From: Thermodesulfovibrionales bacterium
GTDB taxonomy: Bacteria; Nitrospirota; Thermodesulfovibrionia; Thermodesulfovibrionales; UBA6898
Length of the DNA stretch: 50,379 bases
Reading direction: 5' to 3'
NCBI GenBank assembly: GCA_044450345.1
Contig: JBIOIY010000014.1
Span: 1 to 50,379 of the forward strand
A program made the position numbers and the translations under genes. Within the stretch, counting starts at the first letter, position 1. Each line of letters opens with the position of its first letter. Positions 154 through 16,887 of the stretch are shown piece after piece. The notes beneath the pieces were generated by a model. It saw only the letters and a program-made list of their open reading frames with translations, was not told the DNA's origin and did not search any database.

Positions 154-459
154 GTGAATCAAAAGATAAGGATAAAGCTAAAAGCATACGATCACAGGGT
201 ACTCGATCAATCATTGAAAGAGATCGTAGATACGGCGCAGAGGACTGGGGCGAGGGTTGCCGGACCTGTTCCGCTGCCTACCCATATCAGCAAGATAACG
301 GTCCTCAGGTCTCCCCATGTGGACAAAAAGTCGAGGGAACAGTTTGAGATCAGGACCCATAAGAGGCTCATCGATATTCACGATGCAACGCCTCAGACAG
401 TAGACGCCCTCATGAAGCTGGAATTGGCAGCCGGGGTGGACGTGGAGATAAAATTATGA
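154..459 (+). CDS. rpsJ: 30S ribosomal protein S10
   Basis: [32 protein letters not shown] start. Confidence 0.99.
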
Positions 460-1070
460 TCGGGATTTTGGGAAGAAAGCTCGGGATGACCCAGGTCTAT
501 GACGAGAGCGGAAAGATGTTCCCCGTCACTGTGATTGAAGCAGGGCCTTGCTGCGTTATACAGGTGAAGACAAAGGAAAAAGACGGCTACGAATCATCCA
601 AGATCGGATTTTCTGAGATCAAGAAGGAAAAGAAGGTCAATAAGCCCATGGGCGGTATCTTCAAGAAGATCGGGGTAAAACCCTATAAGATGCTCAAAGA
701 GTTTCCAATGGGTGACCTCAAGGTCGGCGAACTCGTGACTGTCGAGAAATTTAAGAAGGGCGATACTATTTCGGTGTCGGGTGTCTCGAAGGGCAAAGGA
801 TTCCAGGGAGTCGTAAAGAGACACCATTACGCCGGAGGTCCTGCGTCCCATGGCTCCATGTTTTACCGCGCCCCCGGCTCCATAGGGGCAAGCTCGTTCC
901 CTTCCAGGGTCTGGAAGAACAAAGGCATGCCGGGCCATATGGGCTCCGAAAGGGTGACGGTTAAAAACCTGAAGGTTGTCGATATTAAGACCGAGCAGAA
1001 TCTTCTTCTTATTTTGGGGGCGGTTCCTGGTTCCAAAGGAACGTATCTCGAAATTAGAAAGGAAAATTAG
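456..1070 (+). CDS. rplC: 50S ribosomal protein L3
   Basis: [22 protein letters not shown]; operon order. Confidence 0.99.
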
Positions 1071-1071
1071 G

Positions 1072-1701
1072 ATGCCAGAATTCGAAGTGAAAGATAAGAA
1101 CAATAAGCCGGTCGGCAAAATCAACCTTTCGGATGAAGTCTTCGGGGTGAAGGTGAAGGACGGGGTCCTTCATAATGCCGTGGTAAATTTCCTTGCAAAC
1201 CAGAGACAGGGTACCCACGCAACGAAGACGAAGGGCCTGGTCAGCGGAGGCGGCAAGAAACCGTGGAAGCAAAAACATACGGGCCGGGCGAGATCAGGCA
1301 GCAGTCGTTCCCCATTGTGGAGAGGCGGAGGCACGGTATTCGGTCCTCAGCCCAGGGATTACTCCTATGCAATACCAAAGAAGGCCAGGAGACTCGCGCT
1401 CAAGGCTGCTCTTTCCGGCAAGCTTTCCGACGGGGAGATTATCGTGGTCGAGACGCTTTCCATTGAAAAGCCGCAGACGAAGGAAATGATGTCTGTCTTG
1501 AAGAGACTGGAACTTGACGGTAAGAGCACCCTTATCATTGTCCCCGAATATAACGAAACAATCATGCTGTCCGCCCGGAATATCCCCGGCGTTACGGTGA
1601 CCAGGGTGTCGGACCTTAATTGTTATGACGTCGCAGCGCACAGCAGGCTGCTGATGACGAGACAGGCTGCTGAGATGCTGTCGGAGGCTGCTCAAAAATG
1701 A
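1072..1701 (+). CDS. rplD: 50S ribosomal protein L4
   Basis: RQGTHATKT, KKPWKQKHTGRARSGS; start moved to ATG 1072 directly after the rplC stop. Confidence 0.98.
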   Translation: MPEFEVKDKNNKPVGKINLSDEVFGVKVKDGVLHNAVVNFLANQRQGTHATKTKGLVSGGGKKPWKQKHTGRARSGSSRSPLWRGGGTVFGPQPRDYSYAIPKKARRLALKAALSGKLSDGEIIVVETLSIEKPQTKEMMSVLKRLELDGKSTLIIVPEYNETIMLSARNIPGVTVTRVSDLNCYDVAAHSRLLMTRQAAEMLSEAAQK

Positions 1702-1988
1702 ATAACGTATATACCGTAATAAAAAAGCCGCTCTTTACCGAAAAGGGGAGCGCCCTCAAAGAGTCGGAAAACAAGCTGCTTGTAGAAGTCGCCAAGGATT
1801 CCAATAAGCTTGAGATAAAGAAGGCCATTGAAGAGATATTTAAGGTGAAGGTCGAAAAGGTGGCGACCATCAAGACCCATGGAAAATGGAAGAAATACGG
1901 CAAGTCGATCGGGAAGCGGTCCGACAAAAAAAAGGCGTTGATTACCCTTAAAAAGGGAGAAAAACTTGATTTCATTGAAGGTGCATAA
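1698..1988 (+). CDS. rplW: 50S ribosomal protein L23
   Basis: [29 protein letters not shown]. Confidence 0.98.
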
Positions 1989-2806
1989 TGGGAATTAAAA
2001 AATATAATCCGACGTCCCCCGGCAGAAGGTTTCGTACAGTAGTGGACTATGCGGATGTCACGGCGACAGAGCCGTTGAAATCCCTTGTAAGGCCGCTGAG
2101 GAAGACCGGCGGACGCAACAACAGCGGATGTGTCACTGCATGGCAGAGAGGCGGCGGCAACAGGAGGAAATACAGGGTCATCGACTTCAAGAGGGACAAA
2201 TTCGGCGTCCCCGCAGTGATCGATACCATTGAATACGATCCAAACCGGTCGGCCAGAATCGCCCTGCTGAAATACAAGGACGGCGATAAGAGATATATCA
2301 TCCTGCCTGCGGGTATGAGCATAGGGGAACAGGTCGTCTCGGGCAGGGGTGCGGAGATAAAAACCGGCAATGCCCTTCCGCTCAGTGATATGCCGCTCGG
2401 TACCTTTATCCATAACATCGAGCTGCGGCCCGGACAGGGCGCGAAAATGGTGAGAAGCGCGGGCTCGCAGGCCCAGCTCATCGCAAAGGATGAAAATTAT
2501 GTCCAGGTCAAGCTGGCCTCAGGCGAAGTCAGGCTGGTGCCAGCCAAGTGCATGGCTACCATAGGACAGGTGAGCAATCCCGACCATGAGAATATTTCTT
2601 TAGGCAAGGCGGGAAGAAACAGATGGGTAGGGAAGAGACCGCATGTAAGAGGCGTCGCCATGAACCCGGTCGATCACCCCTTAGGTGGTGGCGAGGGGAA
2701 GAGTTCCGGAGGAAGGCCGCCGTGTACCCCATGGGGCGTACCCGAGGGCATAAAGACGCGGAACAGCAAGAGGACGGACATGTATATCGTGAAGAGGAGG
2801 AAGTAA
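1988..2806 (+). CDS. rplB: 50S ribosomal protein L2
   Basis: [34 protein letters not shown]. Confidence 0.99.
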
Positions 2807-2807
2807 A

Positions 2808-3092
2808 TTGCCACGGTCATTAAAAAAGGGCCCGTTTGTCGATGAAAAGGTCATGAAAAAAGTTAAAGATATGGCTTCGTCAGGCGAGAAGAAGCTGATA
2901 AAGACATGGTCTAGGCGCTCTGTGATCCTGCCTGACTTCATAGGGTATACTTTTGCCGTTCACAACGGGAAGAAATTTATCCCGGTCTATGTGACGGAAA
3001 ATATGGTCGGGCATAAGCTCGGAGAATTCTCTCCCACGAGGACATTCAGGGGCCATTCAGGCTCGACTAAGACTACTACGGTAAAGGGTTGA
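2808..3092 (+). CDS. rpsS: 30S ribosomal protein S19
   Basis: [27 protein letters not shown] start. Confidence 0.99.
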
Positions 3093-3096
3093 TGAG

Positions 3097-3429
3097 ATGG
3101 ATGCAAAAGTGACACTGAAATACGCAAGGATTACCCCGAGGAAGGCGCGGAGGATAGTCGACCTCATCAGGGGCAAGAAGGCCGGCGATGCGCTGCTGGC
3201 CCTAAGGTTCATGCCGTATCGCGGGGCGAAACACATAGAAAAGATGCTCAAATCGGTAATGGCCAACGCGGAGCAGAAGGATGCCAATGCCGATTCCGAA
3301 GCGATGATAGTCAGCGGGGCCGTGGACCAGGGCTCCATTATGAAAAGAGTGGAACAGAGATCGATGGGCAGGGCGAATGTCATAAAAAAGAAGTCCTGTC
3401 ACATAACATTGAAAATAACAGCGGAATAA
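3097..3429 (+). CDS. rplV: 50S ribosomal protein L22
   Basis: [17 protein letters not shown]; operon order. Confidence 0.98.
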
Positions 3430-3442
3430 TCAGGAGGAGATT

Positions 3443-4102
3443 TTGGGCCAGAAGACGCATCCCATAGGGATTAGGTTAGGCATTACAAGGACATGGGACT
3501 CCCGGTGGTATCTGAAGAAAGGATACGCCGACCAATTGCTCGAGGATTTGACGATCAAGAAAGAGATCAAGGCAAAGCTCTTTCATGCGGGGGTTGCCAA
3601 GATTGAGATAGAGCGTGCTGGCCAGAAGATCAGGGTTATCATACATACGGCAAGGCCGGGGATTATTATCGGGAAAAAGGGTTCGGAGGTGGAAAAGCTC
3701 CGCAAGGACCTGGAACTGATGACCGGAAAACAGGCTATGGTCGATATCAAAGAGATAAGGAAGCCTGAGGTAGACGCCCAGCTTGTTGCCGAAAATATCG
3801 CTCTCCAGCTTGAAAAAAGGGTCGCCTTCAGAAGGGCGATGAAAAAGGCCGTTGCATCGGCGCTGCGGTTCGGCGCCCAGGGAATCAAGATCACATGCTC
3901 GGGCAGACTGGCGGGAGCTGAAATCGCCAGGACCGAGTGGTACAGGGAGGGGCGGGTGCCTCTCCATACATTCAGGGCCGATATACATTACGGATTCGCC
4001 AAGGCGAAGACGACATACGGAATAATAGGTGTGAAAGTCTGGGTCTATACGGGCGACGTACTGCCTGAAGTGAGACCCAGTACGGAAGCAGCGGCTATAT
4101 AA
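3443..4102 (+). CDS. rpsC: 30S ribosomal protein S3
   Basis: [27 protein letters not shown] start after AGGAG. Confidence 0.99.
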
Positions 4103-4114
4103 GGGGACTTTGTT

Positions 4115-4534
4115 ATGTTGATGCCCAAAAAAGTTAAATTCAGGAAGATGCAGAAAGGCAATATGAATGGCAAGGCCTACGCCGGCTCTGATGTGTCCTT
4201 CGGCGAGTTCGGCCTGAAGGCAATGGAACCCGGCTGGGTTTCATCGAGACAGATCGAGGCCGCCAGGATTGCGATTACACGACATGTGAAAAGGGGATGC
4301 AAGGTATGGATCAGGGTATTCCCGGACAAGCCTATTACAAAAAAGCCGGCTGAAACGAGAATGGGAAAAGGAAAAGGTGCTCCAGAATACTGGGTCGCCG
4401 TCGTGAAGCCGGGAAGGGTCCTCTATGAGATATCCGGCGTAACCGAGAGCCTGGCAAAAGAGGCGCTGCGGCTTGCCTCCCACAAGCTTCCTGTCTCGAC
4501 GAAGTTCGTGAAACGGGAAGGGGGCGTACTATGA
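4115..4534 (+). CDS. rplP: 50S ribosomal protein L16
   Basis: [20 protein letters not shown]. Confidence 0.99.
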
Positions 4535-4728
4535 AAGTCTCAGAGCTGAGGGAGCTGGCGGTTGAAGAGCTGCAGAGGAAAGAGCAGGATCTGAGAAAGG
4601 AGCTCTTTAATCTCAGGTTCCAGCAGGCCACCGGTGAGATTGAAAACCCGATGCGCATCCGTAGGATTCGCAAGGACATCGCGAGGGTGCTGACGATGAT
4701 CACCGAAAGGGACAAGAAGGACAAGTGA
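4531..4728 (+). CDS. rpmC: 50S ribosomal protein L29
   Basis: [24 protein letters not shown]. Confidence 0.98.
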
Positions 4729-4765
4729 AATTGCTGGTTATAAAAATGAGGTTGGAAGGTTAAAG

Positions 4766-5026
4766 ATGACTGATAAAACTTATACCGGAAAAGTAGTGAG
4801 CAGCAAGATGGACAAGACCGTCGTGGTCGCAATCACGAGACAGTTTCAGCACCCGGTTTACAGGAAGACCGTAAGGAAGGTGGCCAAGTTCAAGGCCCAC
4901 GATGCGAACAACGAATGCCGGGTCGGCGACGACGTGAAGATCATTGAGACGAGGCCGGTCAGCAAGGACAAGAGATGGCTTGTTCTTGAGATCCTGAAAA
5001 AGGCCGCAAGGAGCAGCGAAAAATGA
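4766..5026 (+). CDS. rpsQ: 30S ribosomal protein S17
   Basis: [25 protein letters not shown]. Confidence 0.98.
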
Positions 5027-5391
5027 TCCAGCTCAGGAGCATGCTTGAAGTAGCAGACAATTCCGGCGCAAAGCGGGTTCAGTGCGTTAAGGTCCTCGGA
5101 GGATCGCGCAGAAGGTATGCGGGGCTGGGAGACGTTGTCGTCGTTAGCGTAAAGGAGGCCCTGCCGGACAGCAACATCAAGAAAGGTTCGGTCACCAAGG
5201 CGGTCGTGGTCCGCACGAGGAAAGAGGCGAGAAGACCCGACGGTTCCTATATACGCTTCGATCAGAACGCGGTAGTTCTGATCAATCCGCAGGGCGAGCC
5301 TGTGGGGACGAGAATATTCGGACCGGTCGCGAGAGAGCTGAGGTGGAAGGAATACATGAAGATAATTTCTCTCGCCCCAGAGGTACTGTAG
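5023..5391 (+). CDS. rplN: 50S ribosomal protein L14
   Basis: [27 protein letters not shown]. Confidence 0.99.
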
Positions 5392-5399
5392 GAGGATAT

Positions 5400-5717
5400 A
5401 TGGCTTTAGGAATAAGGAAAGAAGATACGGTCCACGTCACGACAGGCAAATACAGAGGAAGAACAGGGCGTGTGCTTAAGGTCGACAAGGGGAAAGGCGC
5501 TATATTGATAGAGAAGATCAACATCATCAAGAAACATATGAAACCGAACAAGACATACACGCAGGGGGGCATCATCGAAAAAGAGGCCCCGATTCAGCTG
5601 TCCAATGTCATGCTCGTCTGTCCGAAGTGCAACAAGCCGACCAGGGTAGGAGCAACGGTCTTCGAAGGCGGCAATAAACACAGGACGTGCAAAAAATGCA
5701 AGGAGGTCATTGACTGA
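5400..5717 (+). CDS. rplX: 50S ribosomal protein L24
   Basis: KOW-type N-terminus, [10 protein letters not shown]; start moved to ATG 5400 after AGGAGG; two CxxC pairs near the C-terminus. Confidence 0.97.
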
Positions 5718-5719
5718 TA

Positions 5720-6262
5720 ATGGCTCCACGGCTTAAGGAAAAATACAAGAAAGATATCATCCCCGCAATGATGAAGGAGTTCTCGTATAAAAATATTATG
5801 CAGGCTCCTAAGATTCAGAAGGTCGTCCTGAACGTCGGGCTCGGCGAGGCCATCACGAACATAAAACTTCTCGATGCCGCGCAGAAGGAGCTTGCGATGA
5901 TCACCGGGCAGAAGGCGCTTGTGACAAAGGCCAAGAAATCGATCGCAACATTCAAGTTGAGGCAGGGGATGCCGATAGGCTGCAAGGTCACACTGAGGGG
6001 AGACGTCATGTACGAATTCCTCGACAGGCTGATCAGCGCGGCACTGCCGAGAATCAGGGACTTCAGAGGGGTTTCCGGAAAGTCCTTTGACGGCAGGGGC
6101 AATTTTGCCCTTGGGTTAAAGGAGCAGATTATTTTCCCGGAAATAGATTATGACAAGGTTGATATGGTCCACGGGATGGACGTCATCATCTGTACGTCCG
6201 CGAAGACGGATAAAGAGAGCAAGGCGCTCCTGCGTTACCTGGGCGTCCCGTTTAGAAATTAG
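5720..6262 (+). CDS. rplE: 50S ribosomal protein L5
   Basis: [25 protein letters not shown]. Confidence 0.99.
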
Positions 6263-6278
6263 AGAGAGGTATTATTCC

Positions 6279-6464
6279 ATGGCGAAAACGTGCATGATAG
6301 AAAAAACAAAGCGGCCTCCCAAGTTCCAGGTCAGGGCCCATAACCGGTGCAAGGTTTGCGGCCGGCCGAGAGGCTATCTGAGGCAGTTCGGCATGTGCCG
6401 TATATGCTTTAGAACGCATGCGCTCCAGGGGGAGATCCCCGGAGTGACGAAATCAAGCTGGTAG
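6279..6464 (+). CDS. rpsN: 30S ribosomal protein S14, short zinc-binding type
   Basis: 61 aa from ATG 6279; CKVCGR...CRICFR; GVTKSSW. Confidence 0.97.
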
Positions 6465-6476
6465 GGGTGAACTGAT

Positions 6477-6872
6477 ATGATGACAGATCCGATTGCAGAT
6501 ATGCTTACAAGGGTAAGAAATGCCGTCATGATAAAGTCCGAGAAGGTCGATGTGCCTGCATCGAGGATGAAACTAGAGATAGCGAAGATCATGAAGGAAG
6601 AAGGGTTTATACGGGCTTACAAGATACTGAAGGACAAGAAGCAGGGCATATTGCGGATCACCCTTAAGTATACTGCCGACGATGCAGCGGTAATTTCAGG
6701 CATCAAGAGGATCAGCAAACCCGGCAGAAGGGTATACGCCGACAAAGATTCGATACCGACCGTGATGGGCGGTGTCGGCATCTCCGTGCTCACCACGTCG
6801 AGGGGAGTGCTCGGGGACAAGGCATGCCGGCGGGAAAAAGTCGGCGGAGAAGTTCTCTGCCATATCTGGTAA
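6477..6872 (+). CDS. rpsH: 30S ribosomal protein S8
   Basis: [30 protein letters not shown]. Confidence 0.99.
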
Positions 6873-6884
6873 AGGAGAATCGAG

Positions 6885-7427
6885 ATGTCGAGAATCGGTA
6901 AAAAGCCGGTAGAGATCCCCTCAGGGGTCGATATAAAACTGCTGGATAGTACGATAAAGGTAAAAGGGCCGAAGGGCGAACTCCAGTGGAGTTTCCCGAC
7001 CGGGACGATGGTTTCGGTCAAAGATAAGGAGATCGTTGTTGGACGGGCAGACGACCAGAAGAAAAACAGGGCACTTCACGGACTGACAAGGAGTCTGATA
7101 GCGAACATGGTCCTCGGAGTTACCCAGGGATATCAAAGGGTCCTCGATATCGTAGGTGTCGGTTACAGGGCCCAGGTGCAGGGGAGGAAGATCGTTCTTT
7201 CGCTCGGATATTCTCACGCCGTTGAATATCACCTGCCGGAGGGCATAAACGCAGCGATGGACCAGAAGCAGACGCAGATTACCCTCACCGGGGTGGATAA
7301 GCAGAAGATAGGCCAGGTAGCCGCGAATCTGAGGGCACTGAGGAGTCCTGATGCGTATAAAGGCAAAGGGATCAGGTACAGCGGCCAGAGGTTGAAACTG
7401 AAGGTCGGCAAGACAGGCAAGAAGTAG
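6885..7427 (+). CDS. rplF: 50S ribosomal protein L6
   Basis: MSRIGKKPV, GVGYRA, YKGKGIRY. Confidence 0.99.
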   Translation: MSRIGKKPVEIPSGVDIKLLDSTIKVKGPKGELQWSFPTGTMVSVKDKEIVVGRADDQKKNRALHGLTRSLIANMVLGVTQGYQRVLDIVGVGYRAQVQGRKIVLSLGYSHAVEYHLPEGINAAMDQKQTQITLTGVDKQKIGQVAANLRALRSPDAYKGKGIRYSGQRLKLKVGKTGKK

Positions 7428-7479
7428 TGCGGGCGATCTGCTGATCCTCGCAGCGATATAAACGGTGTAGGAGGCTATT

Positions 7480-7842
7480 TTGGTTAAGAGCAGACAAGAA
7501 GGAAGGCATAGACGCCATGAGCGGGCCAGAAAAAAAATTACCGGTACAGGCGAAAGATTGCGTCTTTCCGTGTATCGGAGTTTAAACCATATATATGCCC
7601 AGATCATTAATGATACGGAAAACAAGACTTTGATCTCGGCTTCGAGCCTCGACAGCCCCGTAAAAGAGTTGAAGCAGCACAAGGGCAACTGCAAGACCGC
7701 AAAGGAAGTAGGGACGCTGGTGGCGAAGAAGGCGATCGAAAAAGGCATCAAGAAGGTCGTTTTCGATAAAAGCGGATATCTTTATCACGGCAGGATAAAG
7801 GCGCTGGCGGACGCTGCCAGGGAAGCGGGACTGGAATTCTAA
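7480..7842 (+). CDS. rplR: 50S ribosomal protein L18
   Basis: [36 protein letters not shown] start after AGGAGG. Confidence 0.98.
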
Positions 7843-7871
7843 CATGACTGAGAATTGTGCAAGGAGGCAAG

Positions 7872-8381
7872 GTGGGAAGGATTGACCCGGAAGGTTTGAA
7901 TTTAAAAGATAAGGTAGTTTACATAAATAGGGTAGCCAAGGTAGTGAAGGGAGGCAGGCGTTTTTCCTTCAGCGCCCTCGTCGTTGTAGGTGACGGGGAA
8001 GGGACCGTCGGCACCGGAAAGGGCAAGGCCTCCGAGGTGCCCGAAGCCATACGTAAGGCCGTAGAACAGGCGAAGAAATCCCTCCTGAAGTTCCCTTTGA
8101 AAGAGGGGACGATCCCCCACAGGATTGTGGGCCAATTCGGATCAGGGCAGGTCGTGATGAATCCTGCCAAGAAAGGGACAGGGCTTATCGCAGGCGGCGC
8201 TGTGAGGGCGGTGCTCGAGGTGGCAGGCATTCAGGACATCGTAGCGAAGTCGCTGGGGAACCATAACCCCTTCAACACCGTCCAGGCGACTATAAACGGC
8301 CTCGTAAACCTGAAGGACCCCGACCTGGTCATAAAGCTTAGGGGCAAGAGTGAGGAAGAGGTACAGGAGGTCGCGGGTTAG
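7872..8381 (+). CDS. rpsE: 30S ribosomal protein S5
   Basis: [27 protein letters not shown] 7872 follows AGGAGG. Confidence 0.98.
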
Positions 8382-8383
8382 AA

Positions 8384-8566
8384 ATGCTGAAGATAACTTT
8401 GAAAAAAGGCTACGTCGGCATTCCGGACAAACAAAAAAGGGTACTGCAATCGTTCGGTCTGAAAAAAATAGGGAGCACCGTTTTGAAAAATGACGACGCG
8501 GCGATGAAGGGAATGATACGCAAGGTTTCCCATCTTATAGAAGTCGAAAAGGTAGACAATAAATAG
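8384..8566 (+). CDS. rpmD: 50S ribosomal protein L30
   Basis: LKITLKK...GLKKIG...GMIRKVSHLI; lies between rpsE and rplO. Confidence 0.96.
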   Translation: MLKITLKKGYVGIPDKQKRVLQSFGLKKIGSTVLKNDDAAMKGMIRKVSHLIEVEKVDNK

Positions 8567-8587
8567 TCTGGAGGATTGACTGTTACC

Positions 8588-9028
8588 ATGAGGATAGAAG
8601 ATATAAAGCCTGCCGTAGGCAGCCACAAGCGCAGCAAGAGAGTCGGTAGGGGCGTTGGTTCAGGCCATGGAAAGACTTCCTGCAAGGGCCATAAAGGACA
8701 GAAGGCGAGATCCGGCGGCACAACGGGCCTCGGCTTTGAAGGCGGCCAGATGCCGCTGCAAAGAAGGCTGCCGAAGCGGGGATTCAAAAACAGGTCGAGA
8801 ATCGAATACGCCGTCATTAACCTGGACAAGATAAACGACCTCAAGGGGCTCGATGTGATTACGCCTGAAACCCTTATCGAGAAGAGGATTATAAGGGACA
8901 TCAAGGACGGACTCAAGGTGCTGGGCGACGGGAAACTCGAAAGACCCGTTACTGTGAAGGCCACGGCATTTAGTGCCTCCGCGACCGAAAAAATCACGGC
9001 TGCGGGCGGCAAGGCAGAGGTAATATAA
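8588..9028 (+). CDS. rplO: 50S ribosomal protein L15
   Basis: [31 protein letters not shown]; start uncertain (8576 or 8588). Confidence 0.98.
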
Positions 9029-9029
9029 G

Positions 9030-10337
9030 TTGGGCCGCCTTCAAAGCTTCCAGAACATTTTCAAAATCACGGAACTGAAGAACAGGATATTTTTCACCCT
9101 CGCGCTTCTGACGGTTTACAGGGTCGGCTGCCATGTTCCTACTCCGGGTATAAATGGCGAAGAGTTAAGCAAATTCCTTACCCAGCAGGCGGGCTCTTTT
9201 ATGCAGTTTTTCGACATGTTCTCCGGAGGGGCCTTGTCCAGGGTCACAATCTTCGCCCTCGGCATCATGCCATACATCAGCGCCTCGATCATTATGCAGT
9301 TGCTTACGGTTGTCATCCCTGCAATCGGGAAACTTGCGAAAGAGGGTGAGGCAGGCAGAAAGAAGATCACGAGATATACGAGATACGGCACGGTCGTCAT
9401 CAGTGCCATACAATCCTTCGGGATCGCGGCCGGGCTGGAGAGTATGTCCCAGGGCGCATTCGTACAAAACCCGGGCTGGTCGTTTAGGTTGATCACGATG
9501 ATAACACTCACATCGGGGACTGCCTTCATTATGTGGCTTGGTGAGCAGATCACGGAGCGTGGCATAGGTAACGGCATATCCCTGATCATATTTGCGGGTA
9601 TCGTCGCGAGGTTCCCCAATGCAATAATCAGTACTGTAAGGCTGGTGCAGGCCGGTGAACTTTCGATCTTCTTCGTTCTATTTCTTATCATTATAATGGT
9701 CGCGGTAATAGCGGGTATCATCCTAATGGAGAGAGGACAGAGGAAGATACCGGTGCAGTATGCAAAAAGAGTGGTCGGAAGAAAGGTGTACGGGGGGCAG
9801 TCTACTCATCTGCCGCTGAAGATAAACACCGCCGGCGTTATCCCTCCTATCTTTGCGTCGTCCATCATCATGTTTCCCGCAACGGTGGCCGGCTTCATAC
9901 AGATCCCATGGGTCCAGTCGTTCGCGAAACAGCTGTCACCTGGAACGATCGTCTATACGGTTTTATATGTGAGTATGATCTTTTTCTTCGCCTATTTTTA
10001 TACGGCCATAGTCTTTAACCCTGTCGATATCGCCGACAACCTAAAAAAATATGGCGGGTATGTGCCGGGAATAAGGCCCGGACAGAAGACATCGGAATAC
10101 CTATACCGTGTACTATCGAGGCTGACATTTGTGGGTGCGATATATCTTGCGATTATCTGCGTTATACCTGAGATCCTGATTACGAGGTTCAGGGTGCCTT
10201 TCTATTTCGGAGGTACCTCTCTCCTTATCGCGGTGGGCGTGGCCCTGGATACGGTTTCCCAGATAGAATCTCATCTGGTGACCCGTTCTTACGAGGGTTT
10301 TCTAAAGAAGGGCAGGCTCAAGGGCAGAAAGGGATGA
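9030..10337 (+). CDS. secY: Preprotein translocase subunit SecY
   Basis: IFALGIMPYISASII, WLGEQITERGIGNGISL, GGTSLLI; TTG start. Confidence 0.99.
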   Translation: MGRLQSFQNIFKITELKNRIFFTLALLTVYRVGCHVPTPGINGEELSKFLTQQAGSFMQFFDMFSGGALSRVTIFALGIMPYISASIIMQLLTVVIPAIGKLAKEGEAGRKKITRYTRYGTVVISAIQSFGIAAGLESMSQGAFVQNPGWSFRLITMITLTSGTAFIMWLGEQITERGIGNGISLIIFAGIVARFPNAIISTVRLVQAGELSIFFVLFLIIIMVAVIAGIILMERGQRKIPVQYAKRVVGRKVYGGQSTHLPLKINTAGVIPPIFASSIIMFPATVAGFIQIPWVQSFAKQLSPGTIVYTVLYVSMIFFFAYFYTAIVFNPVDIADNLKKYGGYVPGIRPGQKTSEYLYRVLSRLTFVGAIYLAIICVIPEILITRFRVPFYFGGTSLLIAVGVALDTVSQIESHLVTRSYEGFLKKGRLKGRKG

Positions 10338-10457
10338 CGCATTCGGAGATCCGCGAGGTTAATACCCGCATCTGGAAAGGATCCATTTCGTATTCGCCTC
10401 GCAGCGGTATGGCATTAATGGGACTTATGTCACAAAGACTGTTATTTGAGAATTGAT

Positions 10458-11207
10458 GTGATCTTTTTGAAATCTCCCGGGGAGATCGAAAAAATGGCCA
10501 AGTCGGGCCGGATTGTTGCGGATGTCCTCGAAGCATTGAAGGACGTGGTGAAAATCGGCCTTACAACCAAGGAGATCGAGGATTTCGCGGATGAACGGAT
10601 AAGGGCCCTTGGCGGCATTCCGGCCTTTAAAGGATACAGGGGCTATCCCGCGAGCGTCTGCACCTCTGTCAATGAACAGGTTGTGCACGGGATCCCGTCG
10701 GCGCGGGTGCTCAAGGATGGTGACATCGTGAGCATAGACATCGGTGTGTTACTGGACGGCTTTTACGGCGACGCTGCAATAACCGTTCCCATCGGTACGG
10801 TAGACAGGGAGGCCGCCGAACTTATAAGGGCGACAGAAGAGGCGCTGTATTTGGGAATCCAGAGCGCGGTTGAAGGCAATCGCCTCTATGATATTTCCGG
10901 CGCGATCCAGAGGCATGTTGAAAAGAACGGTTTCTCCATCGTCAGGCTTTTTGTCGGCCATGGAATAGGCAGGGAACTTCACGAAGAGCCGCAGGTGCCT
11001 AATTACGGGGTGCCTGGTCAGGGCCCGAGGCTGAAGAGGGGAATGACCCTGGCGATAGAGCCGATGGTCAATGCAGGCAGTCATGAGGTGATAATACTGG
11101 ATGACGGGTGGACGGCAGTTACAAAGGACGGAAAAAAGTCCGCTCACTTCGAGCATACGGTGCTGGTGACCTCGGATAAACCGAGAATATTGACTAAATA
11201 CAATTGA
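10458..11207 (+). CDS. map: Methionine aminopeptidase type I
   Basis: CTSVNEQVVHGIP, GHGIG..LHEEP, AIEPM, SAHFEHT; probable GTG start at 10458. Confidence 0.98.
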   Translation: MIFLKSPGEIEKMAKSGRIVADVLEALKDVVKIGLTTKEIEDFADERIRALGGIPAFKGYRGYPASVCTSVNEQVVHGIPSARVLKDGDIVSIDIGVLLDGFYGDAAITVPIGTVDREAAELIRATEEALYLGIQSAVEGNRLYDISGAIQRHVEKNGFSIVRLFVGHGIGRELHEEPQVPNYGVPGQGPRLKRGMTLAIEPMVNAGSHEVIILDDGWTAVTKDGKKSAHFEHTVLVTSDKPRILTKYN

Positions 11208-11219
11208 GAAAGTTATACT
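11190..11219 (+). promoter_or_regulatory. Sigma70-type promoter for infA
   Basis: TTGACT-18 nt-TATACT, ending 8 nt before the infA ATG. Confidence 0.55.
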
Positions 11220-11227
11220 TCTAACTT

Positions 11228-11446
11228 ATGGCAAAAGAAGAAAATATAGAAGTTCAGGGCACAATCCTCGAGACCTTGCCGAATGCAATGTTTAGAGTTG
11301 AGCTGGAAAACGGCCAGATAATTCTTGCATATGTCTCGGGCAAGATGCGGATGCATTTTATAAAAATCCTTCCCGGAGACAAGGTGACCATCGAATTGTC
11401 GCCTTATGATCTTTCTAAGGGAAGAATAACGTATAGATTCAAATAG
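11228..11446 (+). CDS. infA: Translation initiation factor IF-1
   Basis: [38 protein letters not shown]. Confidence 0.99.
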
Positions 11447-11466
11447 TTACACAATTAAGATATAAT
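11438..11466 (+). promoter_or_regulatory. Sigma70-type promoter for rpmJ/alpha operon
   Basis: TTCAAA-17 nt-TATAAT upstream of the rpmJ SD (AAGGAG). Confidence 0.5.
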
Positions 11467-11480
11467 TTTAAGGAGCTATC

Positions 11481-11594
11481 ATGAAGGTTCGTTCATCGGT
11501 AAAACCGATCTGTGCAAAGTGCAAGATCATAAAAAGAAAAGGTGTAGTACGCGTTATTTGTGATAACCCGAAGCATAAACAGAGACAGGGATAG
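11481..11594 (+). CDS. rpmJ: 50S ribosomal protein L36, zinc-binding type (below the ORF-track length cutoff)
   Basis: Manual translation [45 protein letters not shown]. Confidence 0.98.
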
Positions 11595-11665
11595 AACAGT
11601 GAAATATGACAGTGAACAGTGCAGCTGCGATTGATAAGCGACACTGACACTGAAAAGGAGAATAT

Positions 11666-12040
11666 ATGGCGAGAATCGCTGGAGTTGATCTACCCAAGAA
11701 TGAACGCATCGAAATAGCCCTCACCCGCATCTTCGGGGTCGGGAGGCCGCTTTCCCAAAAGATCCTCGGAGAGTCAGGGGTAAGTCCGAACATACGGGTG
11801 AAAGATCTTAAGGATGACGACGCAGTGAAGATAAGGGCCATCATAGAAAGAGACCTCAGGGTTGAGGGCGATCTCCGGCGCGACATATCGATGAATATCA
11901 AAAGGCTTATCGATATAGGCTGCTACAGAGGGACGAGACACAGGCTGTCGCTGCCGTTACGGGGGCAGCGGACAAAGACGAACGCCAGGACGAGGAAAGG
12001 TCCCAGAAAAGCGGTCGTCGGCAAGAAGAAGGAGGCGTAG
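11666..12040 (+). CDS. rpsM: 30S ribosomal protein S13
   Basis: [24 protein letters not shown]. Confidence 0.99.
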
Positions 12041-12043
12041 GGA

Positions 12044-12430
12044 ATGGCCCAGAGAAAAAAGGGAGTTAAGAAAGACAAACGTCATATTGCGAGCGGTGCG
12101 GCCTATATTCAGGCGACCTTTAACAATACGATTGTGACCATAACAGATCCGGCCGGCGGAGTGGTCACGTGGTCGAGTGCAGGGAATCTCGGATTCAAGG
12201 GTTCGCGCAAGGGAACGCCCTATGCGGCCCAGATCGCAGCCGAGTCGGCCGCCAAGAAGGCGATCGATGTCGGAATGAAACAGGTCGATGTGTATGTCAA
12301 GGGACCGGGCGCTGGAAGGGAATCCGCGATCAGGGCCCTTCAGGCGGCAGGCCTCGATATCAATCTTATCAAGGATGTGACGCCGGTGCCGCATAACGGC
12401 TGCAGACCGCCTAAGAGGAGGAGGGTGTAA
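12044..12430 (+). CDS. rpsK: 30S ribosomal protein S11
   Basis: [30 protein letters not shown]. Confidence 0.99.
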
Positions 12431-12431
12431 A

Positions 12432-13058
12432 TTGGCAAGATATACTGGACCCCAATGCAGGCTTTGCCGCAGGGAAACGGAGAAACTTTTTCTCAAAGGC
12501 GACAGGTGTTTTACTGAAAAATGCGCTGTTGAGAGGAGGCAATATCCCCCTGGACAGCACGGTCAGAGAAGGGGAAAATTGTCCGACTATGGAGTACAGC
12601 TCAGAGAAAAGCAGAAGGTGAGGAATACCTACGGTGTTCTCGAAAAACAGTTTAGAAAGTACTTCCATAAAGCCGAGACGAAAAAAGGCGTTACGGGTGA
12701 GGTGCTTCTTCAGTGCCTCGAAACGCGTATGGATAATGTCGTGTATCGCATGGGTTTCGCGCCTAACAGAAACGGCGCCAGGCAGCTCGTTACACATGGT
12801 CACTTCCAGGTGAACGGCAGAGATGTTAATATACCGTCCTTCAGTATGCAGGTGGGCGATGTTATTGAGGTGAGGACGTCGAGCCGGGATATGGATGCGA
12901 TAAAAGACAGCATTGTAAGGGTAGAACAGAGGGGGATCCCTTCCTGGGTTGAGATGGATTTTCAGAATTTTAAGGGAAAAGTTCTCCAGATACCTTCGAG
13001 AGAAGATATCCAGCTCACAGCCCAGGAGCAGTTGATTGTCGAGCTTTACTCCAAGTAG
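12432..13058 (+). CDS. rpsD: 30S ribosomal protein S4 (Cys-containing N-terminus)
   Basis: [36 protein letters not shown] start. Confidence 0.99.
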
Positions 13059-13143
13059 GATAGGGTGTTCGCGAGTTGGGGATTCACTCTTTAAGATAAA
13101 GATTAACGGCTAAAATATAAATTTGAAGCAGATGGGAGGCCTT

Positions 13144-14181
13144 ATGAATCTGAAGAAAAAAGGCTTTCAACTACCTGACAAAATCAGGTTTGATGAAGAG
13201 ACGCTGAGCAGTACTTATGGAAAGCTTATCGTGGAGCCGTTGGAGCGCGGCTTCGGTACCACTATGGGAAATTCACTCAGGAGAGTGCTGCTCTCATCGC
13301 TTGAAGGCGCCGCAATCACCGCTGTAAAAATTGCCGGTGCGCTTCATGAGTTTTCGACGATCAACGGAGTAAAAGAAGACGTCATAAACATAATCCTGAA
13401 TCTCAAGCAGCTGAGGTTCAAATTCCACGGGGAAGGCAGCAAGATCGGCACCTTTAATGTAAAAGGGCCGGGACATGTGACCGGTGCGGACCTTCATGTT
13501 GATTCGACCGTCGAAGTGCTGAATCCCGAGACGCCGCTCGCGACACTCGATAAGGGCGGTAATTTCGACGCGGAGGTCTATATCAGGAAAGGCAAGGGGT
13601 ATATCTCCTCGGAATTGAACAAGGAGGACCTGCCCGTCGGGATGATAGCTGTCGACGCGGCCTTCACCCCTCTCAGAAAGGTCAATTTCTGGGTTGAAAA
13701 AACGAGGGTCGGCAGGGAGACTGACTATGACAGGCTTATTATGGAGATATGGACGGACGGGAGCATCTCCCCTGAGAAAGCCGTATCGCAGGCAGCCTCG
13801 ATAGTCATCGAGCATATGGACCTGTTCATATTCGAGGAGGAAGACGAAGACATGCCGGCATCGGATGAAGTCGGAGTCGGTCATTCGGACAGCGTCCAGT
13901 TCTCTTCGTCAAACGATAACCTCTTCAAGAACGTGGACGAACTCGAGCTTTCAGTCAGGTCTTTTAATTGCCTTAAGAACGCAAACATCAAGACGATCAT
14001 TGAACTTGTCCAGAAGACCGAGCCGGAGATGCTCAAGACGAAGAACTTCGGGAGAAAGTCGCTGAACGAGATAAAAGAGATACTCGGCAGGATGGGGCTC
14101 CACCTCGGCATGAAAATAGACGTGGACAACCTTGCCAAGGAAGCCATGCAGAGCGGAGGTATCAAACAAAATGCGTCATAA
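13144..14181 (+). CDS. rpoA: RNA polymerase subunit alpha
   Basis: EPLERGFGTTMGNSLRRVLLSS, ELELSVRSFNCLKNA, NFGRKSLNEIK; ATG 13144 after GGAGG. Confidence 0.99.
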   Translation: MNLKKKGFQLPDKIRFDEETLSSTYGKLIVEPLERGFGTTMGNSLRRVLLSSLEGAAITAVKIAGALHEFSTINGVKEDVINIILNLKQLRFKFHGEGSKIGTFNVKGPGHVTGADLHVDSTVEVLNPETPLATLDKGGNFDAEVYIRKGKGYISSELNKEDLPVGMIAVDAAFTPLRKVNFWVEKTRVGRETDYDRLIMEIWTDGSISPEKAVSQAASIVIEHMDLFIFEEEDEDMPASDEVGVGHSDSVQFSSSNDNLFKNVDELELSVRSFNCLKNANIKTIIELVQKTEPEMLKTKNFGRKSLNEIKEILGRMGLHLGMKIDVDNLAKEAMQSGGIKQNAS

Positions 14182-14665
14182 AGTAGATGGAAGATTATTC
14201 GGCAGGCCGGCCAACCAGAGGAAGGCGCTTTTGCGCGGCCTTGTCACTGCCCTGTTCGAGCAGCAGAGGATTGAGACGACCGTGGCGAAGGCAAAAGAGG
14301 CCAAGAGGATCGCGGAGAGGATGATCACGTTCGGAATAAAGGGCGACCTCCATTCGAAGCGGCAGGTGCTTTCTTATGTTACTTGCAGGGACATTGCCTC
14401 AAAATTCTTCAGCGAGATCGCCCCTCGTTTCCAGGGCAGAAACGGCGGCTACCTGAGGATAGTACATACCAGACAACGGCTGAAAGACTCAGCGCCGATG
14501 GCGATACTTGAGTTTATCGATTATGAGAACATAAAACAGGCCAAAGGCAAGTTAAAGAAGGAAGAGAAGCCCGAAAAGGCAGCGGAGAAGAAGGCAGAAA
14601 AGAAACCAGAAACGAAGCCCGAAAAGAAGACCGTGAAGAAGACTGAAAAGAAGGCATCTGCATAA
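14171..14665 (+). CDS. rplQ: 50S ribosomal protein L17 with Lys/Glu-rich C-terminal tail
   Basis: MRHK, IETTVAKAKE, RNGGYLRI; start at ATG 14171. Confidence 0.98.
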   Translation: MRHKVDGRLFGRPANQRKALLRGLVTALFEQQRIETTVAKAKEAKRIAERMITFGIKGDLHSKRQVLSYVTCRDIASKFFSEIAPRFQGRNGGYLRIVHTRQRLKDSAPMAILEFIDYENIKQAKGKLKKEEKPEKAAEKKAEKKPETKPEKKTVKKTEKKASA

Positions 14666-14805
14666 TGAGCGATTTTCTGATATTACTTGCAGTTGTTGCA
14701 GCGTGGATAATACTGCAGACGGTAATCCTGCCAAGGATTGGCGTGCCGACCTGAGCTGTGCCGACGGTCCCGGGCAAGACCGACAAGAAATGTAAACACC
14801 AGTAG
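14665..14805 (+). CDS. Small single-pass membrane protein, candidate selenoprotein (UGA at codon 30); 29 aa if UGA is a stop
   Basis: ATG overlaps the rplQ stop (TAATG); MSDFLILLAVVAAWIILQTVILPRIGVPT-TGA(14752-14754)-AVPTVPGKTDKKCKHQ-TAG; hairpin GGTC-N8-GACC begins 11 nt after the TGA. Confidence 0.6.
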
Positions 14806-14835
14806 AGATTCATCTCTAAGACGGTGTAAATAATC

Positions 14836-14861
14836 AAAGGGCTCTGTGAGGAGCCCTTTTT
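14836..14861 (+). terminator. Intrinsic terminator of the ribosomal superoperon, possibly bidirectional
   Basis: AAAGGGCTC-TGTGAG-GAGCCCTTTTT between convergent genes. Confidence 0.85.
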
Positions 14862-14953
14862 AGTTTTTAATTCTCATTCCGAACTGCTGTTGAATCACAC
14901 GCTCTGTCCCGGGCATCGAAAACATGCCCATACTCCTTCGTAAATAATCCGGG

Positions 14954-15403
14954 CTAGCCCTTCTCCAATACATACCCTCCGGTAATATAGCTTTCGAGGT
15001 CACTGATCGTGATTTTCTGCTCGGTGATGAGCGCATTAACAACGTCGCCGATGCTGATCATTCCCAGGAGACGGCCGTGATCAAGGACCGGCAGGTGCCT
15101 CATCCTTTTGGCGGTCATCAGCGCCATGCATTCCTCGATTGTCTTGTCCGGTTCTATATAGAACACAGGCGAATTCATGAGTTCGCCGACTGACGTGGCC
15201 TTTGAGGACCTTCCCTTCAATATCACCTTTCTCGCGTAGTCTCTTTCCGAGAAGACACCGACGATCTCTTCACCGACAACCACCAGCAAGGCGCCTATGT
15301 CCTTGTCTGCCATCATTTGAAGTGCGTCGTATGCGGTAGCCTGGGGCGAGATTCTCCATACGTTGCCGCCCTTGGTCTGCAACACTTTTCTTACCGTTAT
15401 CAT
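14954..15403 (-). CDS. Stand-alone CBS-pair (Bateman module) protein
   Basis: DIGALLVV...GVFSERDYARKV...RMRHLPVLD...GMISIGDVV; SD GAGGAGG. Confidence 0.93.
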   Translation of the reverse strand: MITVRKVLQTKGGNVWRISPQATAYDALQMMADKDIGALLVVVGEEIVGVFSERDYARKVILKGRSSKATSVGELMNSPVFYIEPDKTIEECMALMTAKRMRHLPVLDHGRLLGMISIGDVVNALITEQKITISDLESYITGGYVLEKG

Positions 15404-15799: not shown

Positions 15800-16381
15800 C
15801 TAAGGCGCCTTTCTTTCGTGCCGCTCCATTGAATAGAACATCGCCCCGGCCATGAGGACGACAAAGGCTATCACGACCCAGTGATTTATCCCCAAGAGCC
15901 CGGGCAAGGTTGCGGTCCCCAACCCTGATGACATGTAAAAATTCTCAATGACAGGATAGACGACCGCAAATAGCAGAGACCCCGCGATCATACCGAAAAT
16001 AGCGATTAGGGCGTCAATTCTGCCGCTTCCGAGAGCCGCGACCGCTGTGCCCGGACAATATCCAGCCACAAGGTAGCCCAGCCCAAAGAGAAATCCGCCC
16101 GCCATTTGCGGCCAGAAATAGGTGGGGACGATCCAGATCCTGCTAATATCGAGAAGTTCCAGGTCGCCTAGAAGATAGAGACCACTGGATGCTACGAGTA
16201 TGGCCGTAAACATAACCTTCGGCACGGTAAAATCCCTAAAATAAAACACGCCCGTGAGCTTGTGCGGGTTGCCGAGCCCTCCTCTTTCCAGGAACAAACC
16301 AAAGAAGAGACCCACGACCAGTGCCACGATGAGGCTGGCGCCTTCACTAAATAATCCGTATTCATAAAGAGGAGCGTTCAT
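15800..16381 (-). CDS. YeeE/YedE family sulfur-compound transporter, second half
   Basis: GLFFGLFLERGG, GGFLFGLG..VAGYCPGT; start at ATG 16381 overlapping the upstream stop (ATGA). Confidence 0.88.
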   Translation of the reverse strand: MNAPLYEYGLFSEGASLIVALVVGLFFGLFLERGGLGNPHKLTGVFYFRDFTVPKVMFTAILVASSGLYLLGDLELLDISRIWIVPTYFWPQMAGGFLFGLGYLVAGYCPGTAVAALGSGRIDALIAIFGMIAGSLLFAVVYPVIENFYMSSGLGTATLPGLLGINHWVVIAFVVLMAGAMFYSMERHERKAP

Positions 16382-16887
16382 GACCAAAGCCTCCTGAAGA
16401 TCGCGGCAAATAGAAAGCCGCTTATAAACATTGATATCACAAATACCCATCCCCCTATTGCCAACTGTGCGCCCCCCGTAAGGGCGACTCCGCTTGTACA
16501 ACCCCGCGCCAGTCTTCCCGCAAAACCCAGCAGGATGCCGCCCCCAAAGGCTGTGAATAGCCTCGTGGTGCTGCCCATGCCGGCCCCCTTGTCGAATTTA
16601 AACTTAAAATTCCTGCTGAGAAGAGACCCTGCGAATGCTCCCACCAAAAGGCCGAGTATCTCGAACACAATCCAGTCCTTAAGGGGAGAATCACCGCTGA
16701 AGTAGCGTGAAAAATACTTAAGGCTTCCTGCGTATTCCGGATTTATTCTTTCGGTGGCTACCGCAGAGACGATCGAAAACGCGCTTGATGCGCCAAGACC
16801 TTTTCCCATAATGTAAAATGCAGCGAGGAGGGTTAACCCAAGACCAATGCCCGCTAGATAGGGCGACCAGAAATTGTTCTTTTCCAT
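16378..16887 (-). CDS. YeeE/YedE family sulfur-compound transporter, first half
   Basis: WSPYLAGIGLG, LGASS, GFAGRLARGCTSG; SD AAGGAG. Confidence 0.88.
   Translation of the reverse strand: MEKNNFWSPYLAGIGLGLTLLAAFYIMGKGLGASSAFSIVSAVATERINPEYAGSLKYFSRYFSGDSPLKDWIVFEILGLLVGAFAGSLLSRNFKFKFDKGAGMGSTTRLFTAFGGGILLGFAGRLARGCTSGVALTGGAQLAIGGWVFVISMFISGFLFAAIFRRLWS

Follow-up and report, generated by a model that had tools for sequence, protein, structure and literature searches.

Behind rplQ, the gene for ribosomal protein L17, at the 3' end of a ribosomal superoperon of a Thermodesulfovibrionales bacterium (Nitrospirota), lies a short open reading frame (ORF) that contains an in-frame TGA, and the question raised by this locus is whether the TGA ends a peptide of 29 residues or is read as selenocysteine (Sec, U) in a protein of 46. 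The DNA concerned is a stretch of 50,379 nucleotides (assembly GCA_044450345.1, contig JBIOIY010000014.1, positions 1 to 50,379), referred to here as the window, and an original prediction made from its letters had described the ORF as a hidden membrane selenoprotein and the last gene of the superoperon. The comparative evidence set out below strongly supports the selenoprotein reading: the ORF at 14665-14805 is very probably a real gene, co-transcribed with rplQ, whose UGA is predicted to be decoded as Sec to give a 46-residue membrane protein.

The ATG of the ORF shares its A with the TAA stop codon of rplQ (TAATG); the 29 codons in front of the TGA, MSDFLILLAVVAAWIILQTVILPRIGVPT, encode a hydrophobic helix followed by the motif PRIGVPT, and 16 codons, AVPTVPGKTDKKCKHQ, lie between the TGA and a TAG at 14803-14805. 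The helix carries W14, L17 and Q18, which are invariant across the family in the clade alignment. The TGA is followed by a spacer of 11 nucleotides, GCTGTGCCGAC, and by a hairpin formed from GGTC (14766-14769), CCGGGCAA and GACC (14778-14781), which can be extended by the pair C14765-G14782. The S10-spc-alpha superoperon occupies 154-14665, from rpsJ to rplQ, with secY (9030-10337) within it, and since it ends in rplQ and an intrinsic terminator stands 31 nucleotides 3' of the ORF stop, clear of the hairpin, the ORF is the last reading frame before the operon terminator. In these respects, from the overlapping start and the two stretches of codons to the spacing, the extendable stem and the terminator, the DNA is as it had originally been described. 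RNA contigs of four metatranscriptome runs (X16-X19) map to rpoA and rplQ and end at 14580, upstream of the ORF. L17 itself bears a C-terminal extension of about 45 residues (14530-14662) that is rich in Lys, Glu and Pro and variable between strains, and it is at this extension that the RNA contigs of related strains part from the window, leaving a loose end at 14580.

When 61 genomes from the organism's genus, family and order (the relatives) were searched in six frames with the peptide, the ORF with its in-frame TGA was found in 53, and a diverged copy was recognised in one more (G049) when the DNA 3' of rplQ was read, which brings the total to 54 of 61. Of 301 genomes sampled from the phylum, 59 gave a match, 57 of them with the TGA and two that stop short of its position; all 59 belong to the window's own class, and the ORF was not found in families of the other Nitrospirota classes of this sample (for example 0/64 and 0/50). 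The TGA is codon 30 in all 30 of the best loci, and the predicted proteins of the clade measure 43-50 residues overall. Directly 3' of rplQ lie 29 of these 30 ORFs, the L17 stop codon overlapping the ORF start in 20 (TAATG, TAGTG, GTGA, ATGA) and the gap being at most 14 nucleotides in the other nine, an arrangement that agrees with the proposed translational coupling to L17. A neighbourhood count of 57 loci, in which some genomes are counted twice, placed the ORF behind rplQ in 50 and behind secG in five, and in one locus (L090) it is located elsewhere, next to neither gene. It could be objected that so short an ORF, unannotated and without a match to any family model, is a chance reading frame or an assembly artefact and no gene at all; this objection retains practically no probability, being refuted by the preservation of sequence, position and frame in 54 of the 61 relatives and by a large family that extends across phyla, as described below.

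Another possibility is that the TGA is an ordinary stop, in which case the gene would make a 29-residue membrane peptide and the conserved 3' sequence would be an RNA element, namely a stabilising or processing hairpin of the operon 3' end. Gene callers do end the protein at residue 29, as 112 of the 120 close database relatives, among the matches listed, are 29-residue stubs that are unnamed or called 'hypothetical protein' (the gene is thus as invisible to standard annotation as had been expected). Moreover, the most conserved part of the protein precedes the TGA, the hairpin is conserved, and several clade ORFs terminate in TGA immediately after a Cys, so that TGA remains a genuine stop in the clade; a reassigned genetic code is ruled out by the same observation. 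On the other hand, the synonymous excess found after the TGA is confined to frame 0. With the synonymous share of codon differences between sequences taken per frame as the measure of coding, tails of 14 codons (n=23) gave 29.7% in frame 0 versus 6.3% and 7.8% in the other frames, tails of 16 codons (n=16) gave 16.5% versus 10.2% and 5.8%, and the 29 codons before the TGA gave 42% in frame versus 11.9% and 5.7%. Of the 51 distinct sequences of the clade, 50 keep frame 0 open for 13-20 codons past the TGA, and the remaining one has no stop throughout the stretch examined; in most the frame stops 0-3 codons past a conserved Cys, and frame +2 is mostly closed within 16 codons. This Cys is present in 47 of the 50 tails that were counted, with TGC used 25 times and TGT 22 times, at +13 or +14 from U in 34, at +8 to +10 in nine and at 15 or 17 in four, and the KK in front of it is encoded by all four AAR combinations. 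Because of the in-frame synonymous excess, the open frame and the Cys that is kept with both of its codons, the tail is seen to be under protein-level selection, weaker than that on the helix, and the continued coding past the TGA that the original prediction implied is borne out. With Cys homologues that read through the same column to a second Cys, and with the gene lost in the sole relative without selA, selB and selD, an ordinary stop is highly improbable.

These homologues came from a scan outside the clade, in which one genome per species was searched with the clade alignment as query and which returned 13 loci, 12 of them clear homologues; the other, a match in an Actinomycete, looks spurious and was set aside. 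The 12 derive from metagenome-assembled genomes labelled Planctomycetaceae, Schlesneria, Myxococcales/Polyangia, Deltaproteobacteria, Desulfobacteraceae, Bacteroidota and Chloroflexota, and they carry a Cys at the TGA position and a second Cys five residues further on (W..LQ.W[IV][FL]PKLGIPT-C-MSGAC-VP). In the joint alignment of the Cys and Sec forms the C/U column is invariant, so the earlier expectation that homologues would keep TGA or Cys at this codon, and not TAA or TAG, holds both within the relatives and beyond them. A profile search over 1.84 billion representative proteins yielded 1896 representatives at E<=1e-3 and 70 at E<=1e-10. In the best 152 of the 1896, a C with a second C at +5 occurs in 101, W stands at the Sec column in 21 and G in two, six have a stop there, and two are of the 'AVP' type seen in the window, with Cys in place of Sec; W and G are the residues that TGA yields in genetic codes 4 and 25, and these codes are at times used by gene callers for metagenomes. 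E, R, S or L stands at this column in a few database relatives (P0108, P0153, P0182, P0267 and others), all of them single-base neighbours of TGA or the outcome of a one-base deletion, P0108 being a frameshift reading of TGA GCG GTC CCC; these variants may stem from sequencing errors or may truly have lost Sec.

Sec forms of the wider family were collected from metagenome DNA with the pattern P-K-[LF]-G-x-[ST]-T-TGA-ATG, which matched at least 120 loci, about 119 of those listed being family members as judged by reading them. Among the matches listed, the frame runs on for 15-40 codons past the TGA, and 106 of 108 distinct proteins have a Cys at U+5 (T-U-MxxxC). The same 108 show strong hairpins with the consensus UGA AUG NGN NAN GCCUGUC-AGGU-GACAGGC, the contiguous stem, which starts 6-16 nucleotides past the UGA, having at least 5 base pairs in 101, at least 6 in 81 and at least 7 in 50; for random TGA triplets in the window's genome the corresponding shares are 38%, 17% and 7%, and for the 12 Cys forms the counts are seven, two and one. 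Counted in a fixed register, 69.3% of the cells are paired in the metagenome Sec forms versus 62.4% after shuffling, a value reached by 0 of 500 shuffles.

The machinery needed to decode such a codon is present in the window's genome. It encodes selA (608.7 bits), selB (382.4 bits), tRNA-Sec, the product of selC (70.5 bits), and selD (357.8 bits), all above the curated cut-offs; selD has one in-frame TGA itself, and three FdhA-like genes have one each. In the relatives selA is found in 60 of 61, the exception being G015, a genome 99% complete that is also without selB and selD and in which only a terminator, and no ORF, stands behind rplQ. Two congeners of this organism (G027 and G034) have both the Sec machinery and the ORF. 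This co-loss is a single event, but it is in the predicted direction.

Decoding of UGA as Sec in bacteria involves a selenocysteine insertion sequence (SECIS), and a bacterial SECIS (bSECIS) is expected to be a stem-loop that lies at the SECIS distance from the UGA and has a G in its apical loop. The clade hairpin has both properties, with a modest stability signal. In a MAFFT alignment of 30 clade sequences, RNAalifold found one helix of 5 base pairs with a 6-nucleotide loop and compensatory changes in all five pairs, the stem variants including GGTC/GACC, GGCC/GGCC, GGAGC/GCTCC and GGGTT/AATCC. Paired cells made up 80.7% versus 65.8 +/- 2.2% in shuffles, and double-sided changes occurred in 30 cells versus 12.8, neither value being reached by any of 500 shuffles; sliding the 3' partner, as a control, gave pairing of at most 55%. 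The conserved hairpin that had been foreseen is therefore present as a covarying helix. It begins 10-11 nucleotides after the UGA, with the loop CGGGCA or CCGGGCAA, and one genus with two extra codons has another hairpin, CCCGA-AGGTN-TCGGG, which also starts 11 nucleotides past the UGA, as a distance-constrained SECIS predicts. The available text of PMC8659212 places the upper stem-loop of the E. coli SECIS 11 nucleotides from the UGA and so bears out the comparison drawn originally. In the window's own genome, a distance of 13-18 nucleotides separates the UGA from the stem in the two FdhA-like genes that have GGUCU loops, and the two hairpins behind the UGA of selD start within the same range.

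Several observations weigh against the selenoprotein reading. The window hairpin is small, with 4-5 base pairs and a loop of 6-8, the minimum free energy of the 51 nucleotides after the UGA is no better than in shuffles (z +0.49), and the clade mean z is merely -0.73 to -0.91. A simple criterion, that is, a contiguous stem of at least 5 base pairs starting 6-16 nucleotides after the TGA, is passed by 39 of 51 clade sequences (76%) but also by 38% of random genomic TGA triplets. The loop CCGGGCAA is unlike the GGUCU loops of two of the three FdhA-like SECIS elements in the genome; an Rfam scan of the window at gathering thresholds gave no SECIS match, and an Rfam E-value scan of 14600-14900 gave chance-level snoRNA and sRNA matches alone. 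The codon-anchored alignment of the metagenome Sec forms gave no consensus helix with RNAalifold, either for a hand-picked set of 20 sequences or for all 106, because the stems vary in length and register. As regards the protein, three of the 50 clade tails are without a Cys, the coding signal is weak in the 16-codon tail class, and the gene contexts outside the clade, described further on, are heterogeneous, which leaves the functional reading thin. Finally, no ORF was found behind rplQ in five selA carriers among the 61 relatives (G045, G047, G055, G057 and G060), and one genus of the phylum sample (g25) had the ORF in 0 of 11 genomes; the gene is therefore dispensable and not essential to users of Sec.

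It is also conceivable that the UGA serves mainly as a selenium-dependent switch, the ratio of the 29- and 46-residue products, or the pausing of ribosomes on this UGA near the 3' end of the ribosomal-protein mRNA, reporting selenium status and both isoforms having roles, a view that overlaps with the selenoprotein reading. According to the available text of PMC4513850, UGA recoding in E. coli amounts to no more than 30-40%, needs sufficient selenium and competes with RF2, and a gene at the 3' end of constitutive operons, behind rplQ or secG, would suit such a sensor. However, the sequence indicates no regulatory target, the terminator beyond the ORF is clear of the hairpin, and the occurrence of the family with Cys, in unrelated contexts and in other phyla, argues for a function of the full-length protein. 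A switch as the main role of the UGA is thus quite improbable, and the reading pursued below is that of a selenoprotein that functions at full length.

The family to which the window protein belongs is absent from selenoprotein catalogues, and gene finders cut the protein at residue 29. The window protein has no Pfam match at E<=10, and neither it nor eight Sec forms and 11 Cys forms match an NCBIfam (release 20.0) or Pfam family, the sole NCBIfam matches having E values of 0.02 or worse, far below the cut-offs. The nearest look-alike of a Cys form in the ESM Atlas is an unnamed cluster of 56 residues. No description of the family was found in literature on selenoproteins with rplQ, on the CMSGAC motif or on small membrane proteins. 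Table 1 of PMC13188914 covers 119 families and subfamilies of prokaryotic selenoproteins, all with model identifiers, and no entry of that table corresponds to the window protein; the available text of PMC12013277, the deep-Sep paper, reports three domain-less families that are now NCBIfam models, and these models do not match it either.

Its closest kin are the members of the uncatalogued PKLG-x-T-[C/U]-x4-C family collected above (a Cys form is MBN2804016.1, 'hypothetical protein'), with which it shares the helix with W..L[QN], the motif P-[KR]-[LIF]-G-[VI]-x-T followed by Cys or Sec at or near residue 30, a basic, disordered-looking tail and, in the Sec forms, a hairpin after the UGA. Unlike them, the window protein has A-V-P-T-V at +1 to +5, with no Cys at +5 and a Cys at +13, and in its clade the tail is very short, the hairpin weaker and the location fixed, behind rplQ or secG; since the Cys at +5 is missing, the window clade is to be regarded as a divergent sub-branch of the [C/U]-x4-C family. 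The eukaryotic proteins SELENOK and SELENOS consist of a single-pass anchor and a short, probably disordered cytosolic tail, rich in Pro, Gly and basic residues, with Sec next to the C-terminus. The window protein is alike in outline, having a predicted membrane anchor and a Sec-bearing Pro/Gly/basic tail, but there is no sequence kinship (no Pfam match at E<=10), the predicted Sec, at residue 30 of 46, stands 16 residues before the C-terminus, and decoding would be of the bacterial kind with the SECIS inside the ORF. With genes decoded through SelB and a SECIS, such as E. coli fdhF and the FdhA-like and selD genes of the same genome, it shares the in-frame UGA, the stem-loop within the ORF and the existence of Cys homologues, and with the E. 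coli element also the 11-nucleotide spacing (available text of PMC8659212), whereas its stem is much smaller, its loop is CCGGGCAA and not GGUCU, and the frame after the UGA has only 16 codons, so that the SECIS fills most of the remaining gene. Entries of Table 1 of PMC13188914 offer a further comparison. Small prokaryotic selenoproteins in NCBIfam and in the same table that have no assigned function (for example TsoA with LULAXC, KCU-star/DUF466, UXX-star and the hypothetical proteins DG, DW and DF) are likewise short, have Sec near Cys and were predicted from Sec/Cys pairing and a bSECIS, but none of their models matches the window protein or its relatives, and U-x4-C or U-x13-C behind a membrane helix is not among the 119 entries of that table.

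The coordinates of the ORF, its parts and its surroundings are collected in the following table.

Table. Features of the superoperon end and of the adjoining region in the window.
Feature	Coordinates	Strand	Basis
rplQ (L17), last annotated gene of the S10-spc-alpha superoperon	14171..14665	+	Pfam Ribosomal_L17, E 1.7e-33
Small ORF, 46 codons and TAG, with TGA read as Sec: MSDFLILLAVVAAWIILQTVILPRIGVPT-U-AVPTVPGKTDKKCKHQ	14665..14805	+	Sequence; conservation in 54/61 relatives
Predicted single transmembrane helix, residues 4-22	14674..14730	+	Hydrophobic stretch; invariant columns in clade alignment
In-frame TGA, codon 30, predicted Sec codon	14752..14754	+	TGA in 30/30 loci; Cys at the column in homologues
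SECIS-like hairpin, C-GGTC / CCGGGCAA / GACC-G	14765..14782	+	RNAalifold helix with compensatory changes; shuffle test
TGT, Cys43 (KKC motif), predicted second redox or ligand residue	14791..14793	+	Tail Cys in 47/50 clade sequences
Intrinsic terminator, 10-base-pair stem then T run	14836..14866 (stem 14836-14859)	+	Sequence
CBS-domain gene	14954-15403	-	
YeeE/YedE split pair (Sulf_transp)	15800-16887	-	Pfam

The YeeE/YedE pair that had been pointed out in the vicinity is indeed present, but it is not a conserved neighbour, as it lies near the ORF in two of the 57 loci, and a link with it was rejected; the CBS-domain gene is found in six of the 57. The reading frames of the pair overlap, and its YedE half has GCTSG, the Cys form of GUxSG, which the available text of PMC13188914 gives as the motif of Sec-containing YeeE/YedE proteins. 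The loci in which the ORF stands directly behind tpiA-secG (L076, L078, L081, L089 and L098) belong to five genomes (G058, G237, G316, G260 and G046) from three genera of one family of the order, and both conserved positions of the ORF in the class are thus 3' ends of housekeeping operons that include a gene for a subunit of the Sec translocon. This association with secY and secG is a lead and not evidence, and no sec gene was found near family members in other phyla in the neighbourhoods of the loci examined. Many of the related assemblies have a contig end some 14.5 kb away from the ORF (coordinates near 14.2-14.8 kb); the break probably falls immediately upstream of rpsJ, likely where a tuf gene is duplicated, and EF-Tu-like fragments occur at contig ends of the window's genome (G000:C8:24-92 and C12:52858-52926).

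Outside the clade, three of the 12 loci with Cys forms place the gene between an MBL-rhodanese fusion and TauE with Pyr_redox_2 (pyridine-nucleotide-disulfide oxidoreductase), and four place it with a sigma-54 activator, thioredoxin, DUF6132 and a DsbD_TM-thioredoxin fusion. Across 32 distinct loci of Sec forms, rhodanese occurs in four and Pyr_redox_2 in two, with a Pyr_redox_dim-rhodanese protein in a third, and the further neighbours include DsrE, DsbD_TM and a CsoR-like repressor besides many unrelated genes. Small DUF6132 membrane proteins with C-x-x-G-G-C adjoin Cys forms in two loci (L057:1279-1485 and L063:1584-1910), in the first of them in an operon with thioredoxin and the DsbD_TM-thioredoxin fusion, and represent a second uncharacterised Cys-motif microprotein in the Cys-form clusters. 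In four loci (L115, L155, L171 and L181) a 4Fe-4S dicluster protein of about 330 residues is followed by a protein of about 160 residues without a Pfam family and then by the Sec gene; an extracytoplasmic function (ECF) sigma factor follows in the last three, and in L115 the next gene with a Pfam match encodes a methyltransferase.

The charges around the helix bear on the topology of the protein. In the clade the N-terminal tail has 0.00 K/R and 1.02 D/E, versus 2.16 K/R and 0.22 D/E in the first 15 residues after the helix, and a bias of the same sign is seen in the metagenome Sec forms and the Cys forms; by the positive-inside rule, the C-terminus is therefore predicted to be cytoplasmic, which would put Sec30 at the inner, cytoplasmic side of the membrane. 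The best-supported reading of function, drawn from motif and context, is that of a Sec/Cys redox arm, tethered to the membrane, that takes part in thiol or sulfane-sulfur chemistry. With regard to the U30/C43 membrane miniprotein originally put forward, the selenoprotein part has thus stood, and its 'redox or metal-binding' character continues to be read from motif and context.

It may be envisaged, then, that the small ORF is transcribed together with rplQ, probably with translational coupling, and that SelB, with the help of the hairpin about 11 nucleotides downstream, would decode the UGA at codon 30 as Sec. Since Sec insertion in bacteria competes with termination, the truncated 29-residue peptide would probably be made too. 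The full product would be a single-pass membrane protein of 46 residues, with the N-terminus outside and the C-terminus inside, in which U30 would lie seven residues past the helix and be followed by a flexible Pro/Gly/Lys-rich tail with Cys43. U30 and Cys43 (U/C-x4-C in the wider family) may form a redox-active selenylsulfide couple, and the tethered arm may pass reducing equivalents or sulfane sulfur or selenium between cytoplasmic sulfurtransferases or thioredoxins and membrane proteins. A more ambitious proposal, to be considered speculative and on the whole unlikely, would place the ORF, as the branch tied to the ribosomal operon, in a large family of bacterial membrane micro-selenoproteins that has so far escaped recognition. 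Such a family would correspond in prokaryotes to SELENOK/SELENOS; its Sec/Cys arm would be produced constitutively with the translation and translocation machinery and would act at the cytoplasmic face, possibly next to the Sec translocon, where a selenylsulfide would relay thiol, persulfide or selenide chemistry.

Selenoprotein catalogues have been built mostly from proteins that are long enough to be called and that have a known domain, and a gene of 46 codons is systematically cut to a 29-residue 'hypothetical protein' or left uncalled. If the selenoprotein reading is true, it would add a domain-less selenoprotein family with 1896 representative clusters, Cys forms included, and, as far as the literature and Table 1 of PMC13188914 show, the first single-pass membrane micro-selenoprotein type to be described in bacteria. 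It would also mean that a bacterial SECIS is able to work within a tail of 16 codons, and it would provide a very small, tractable system for the study of Sec insertion near a stop codon. Furthermore, the fixed place of the gene behind rplQ or secG in this class of Nitrospirota would suggest a housekeeping role of selenium at the membrane.

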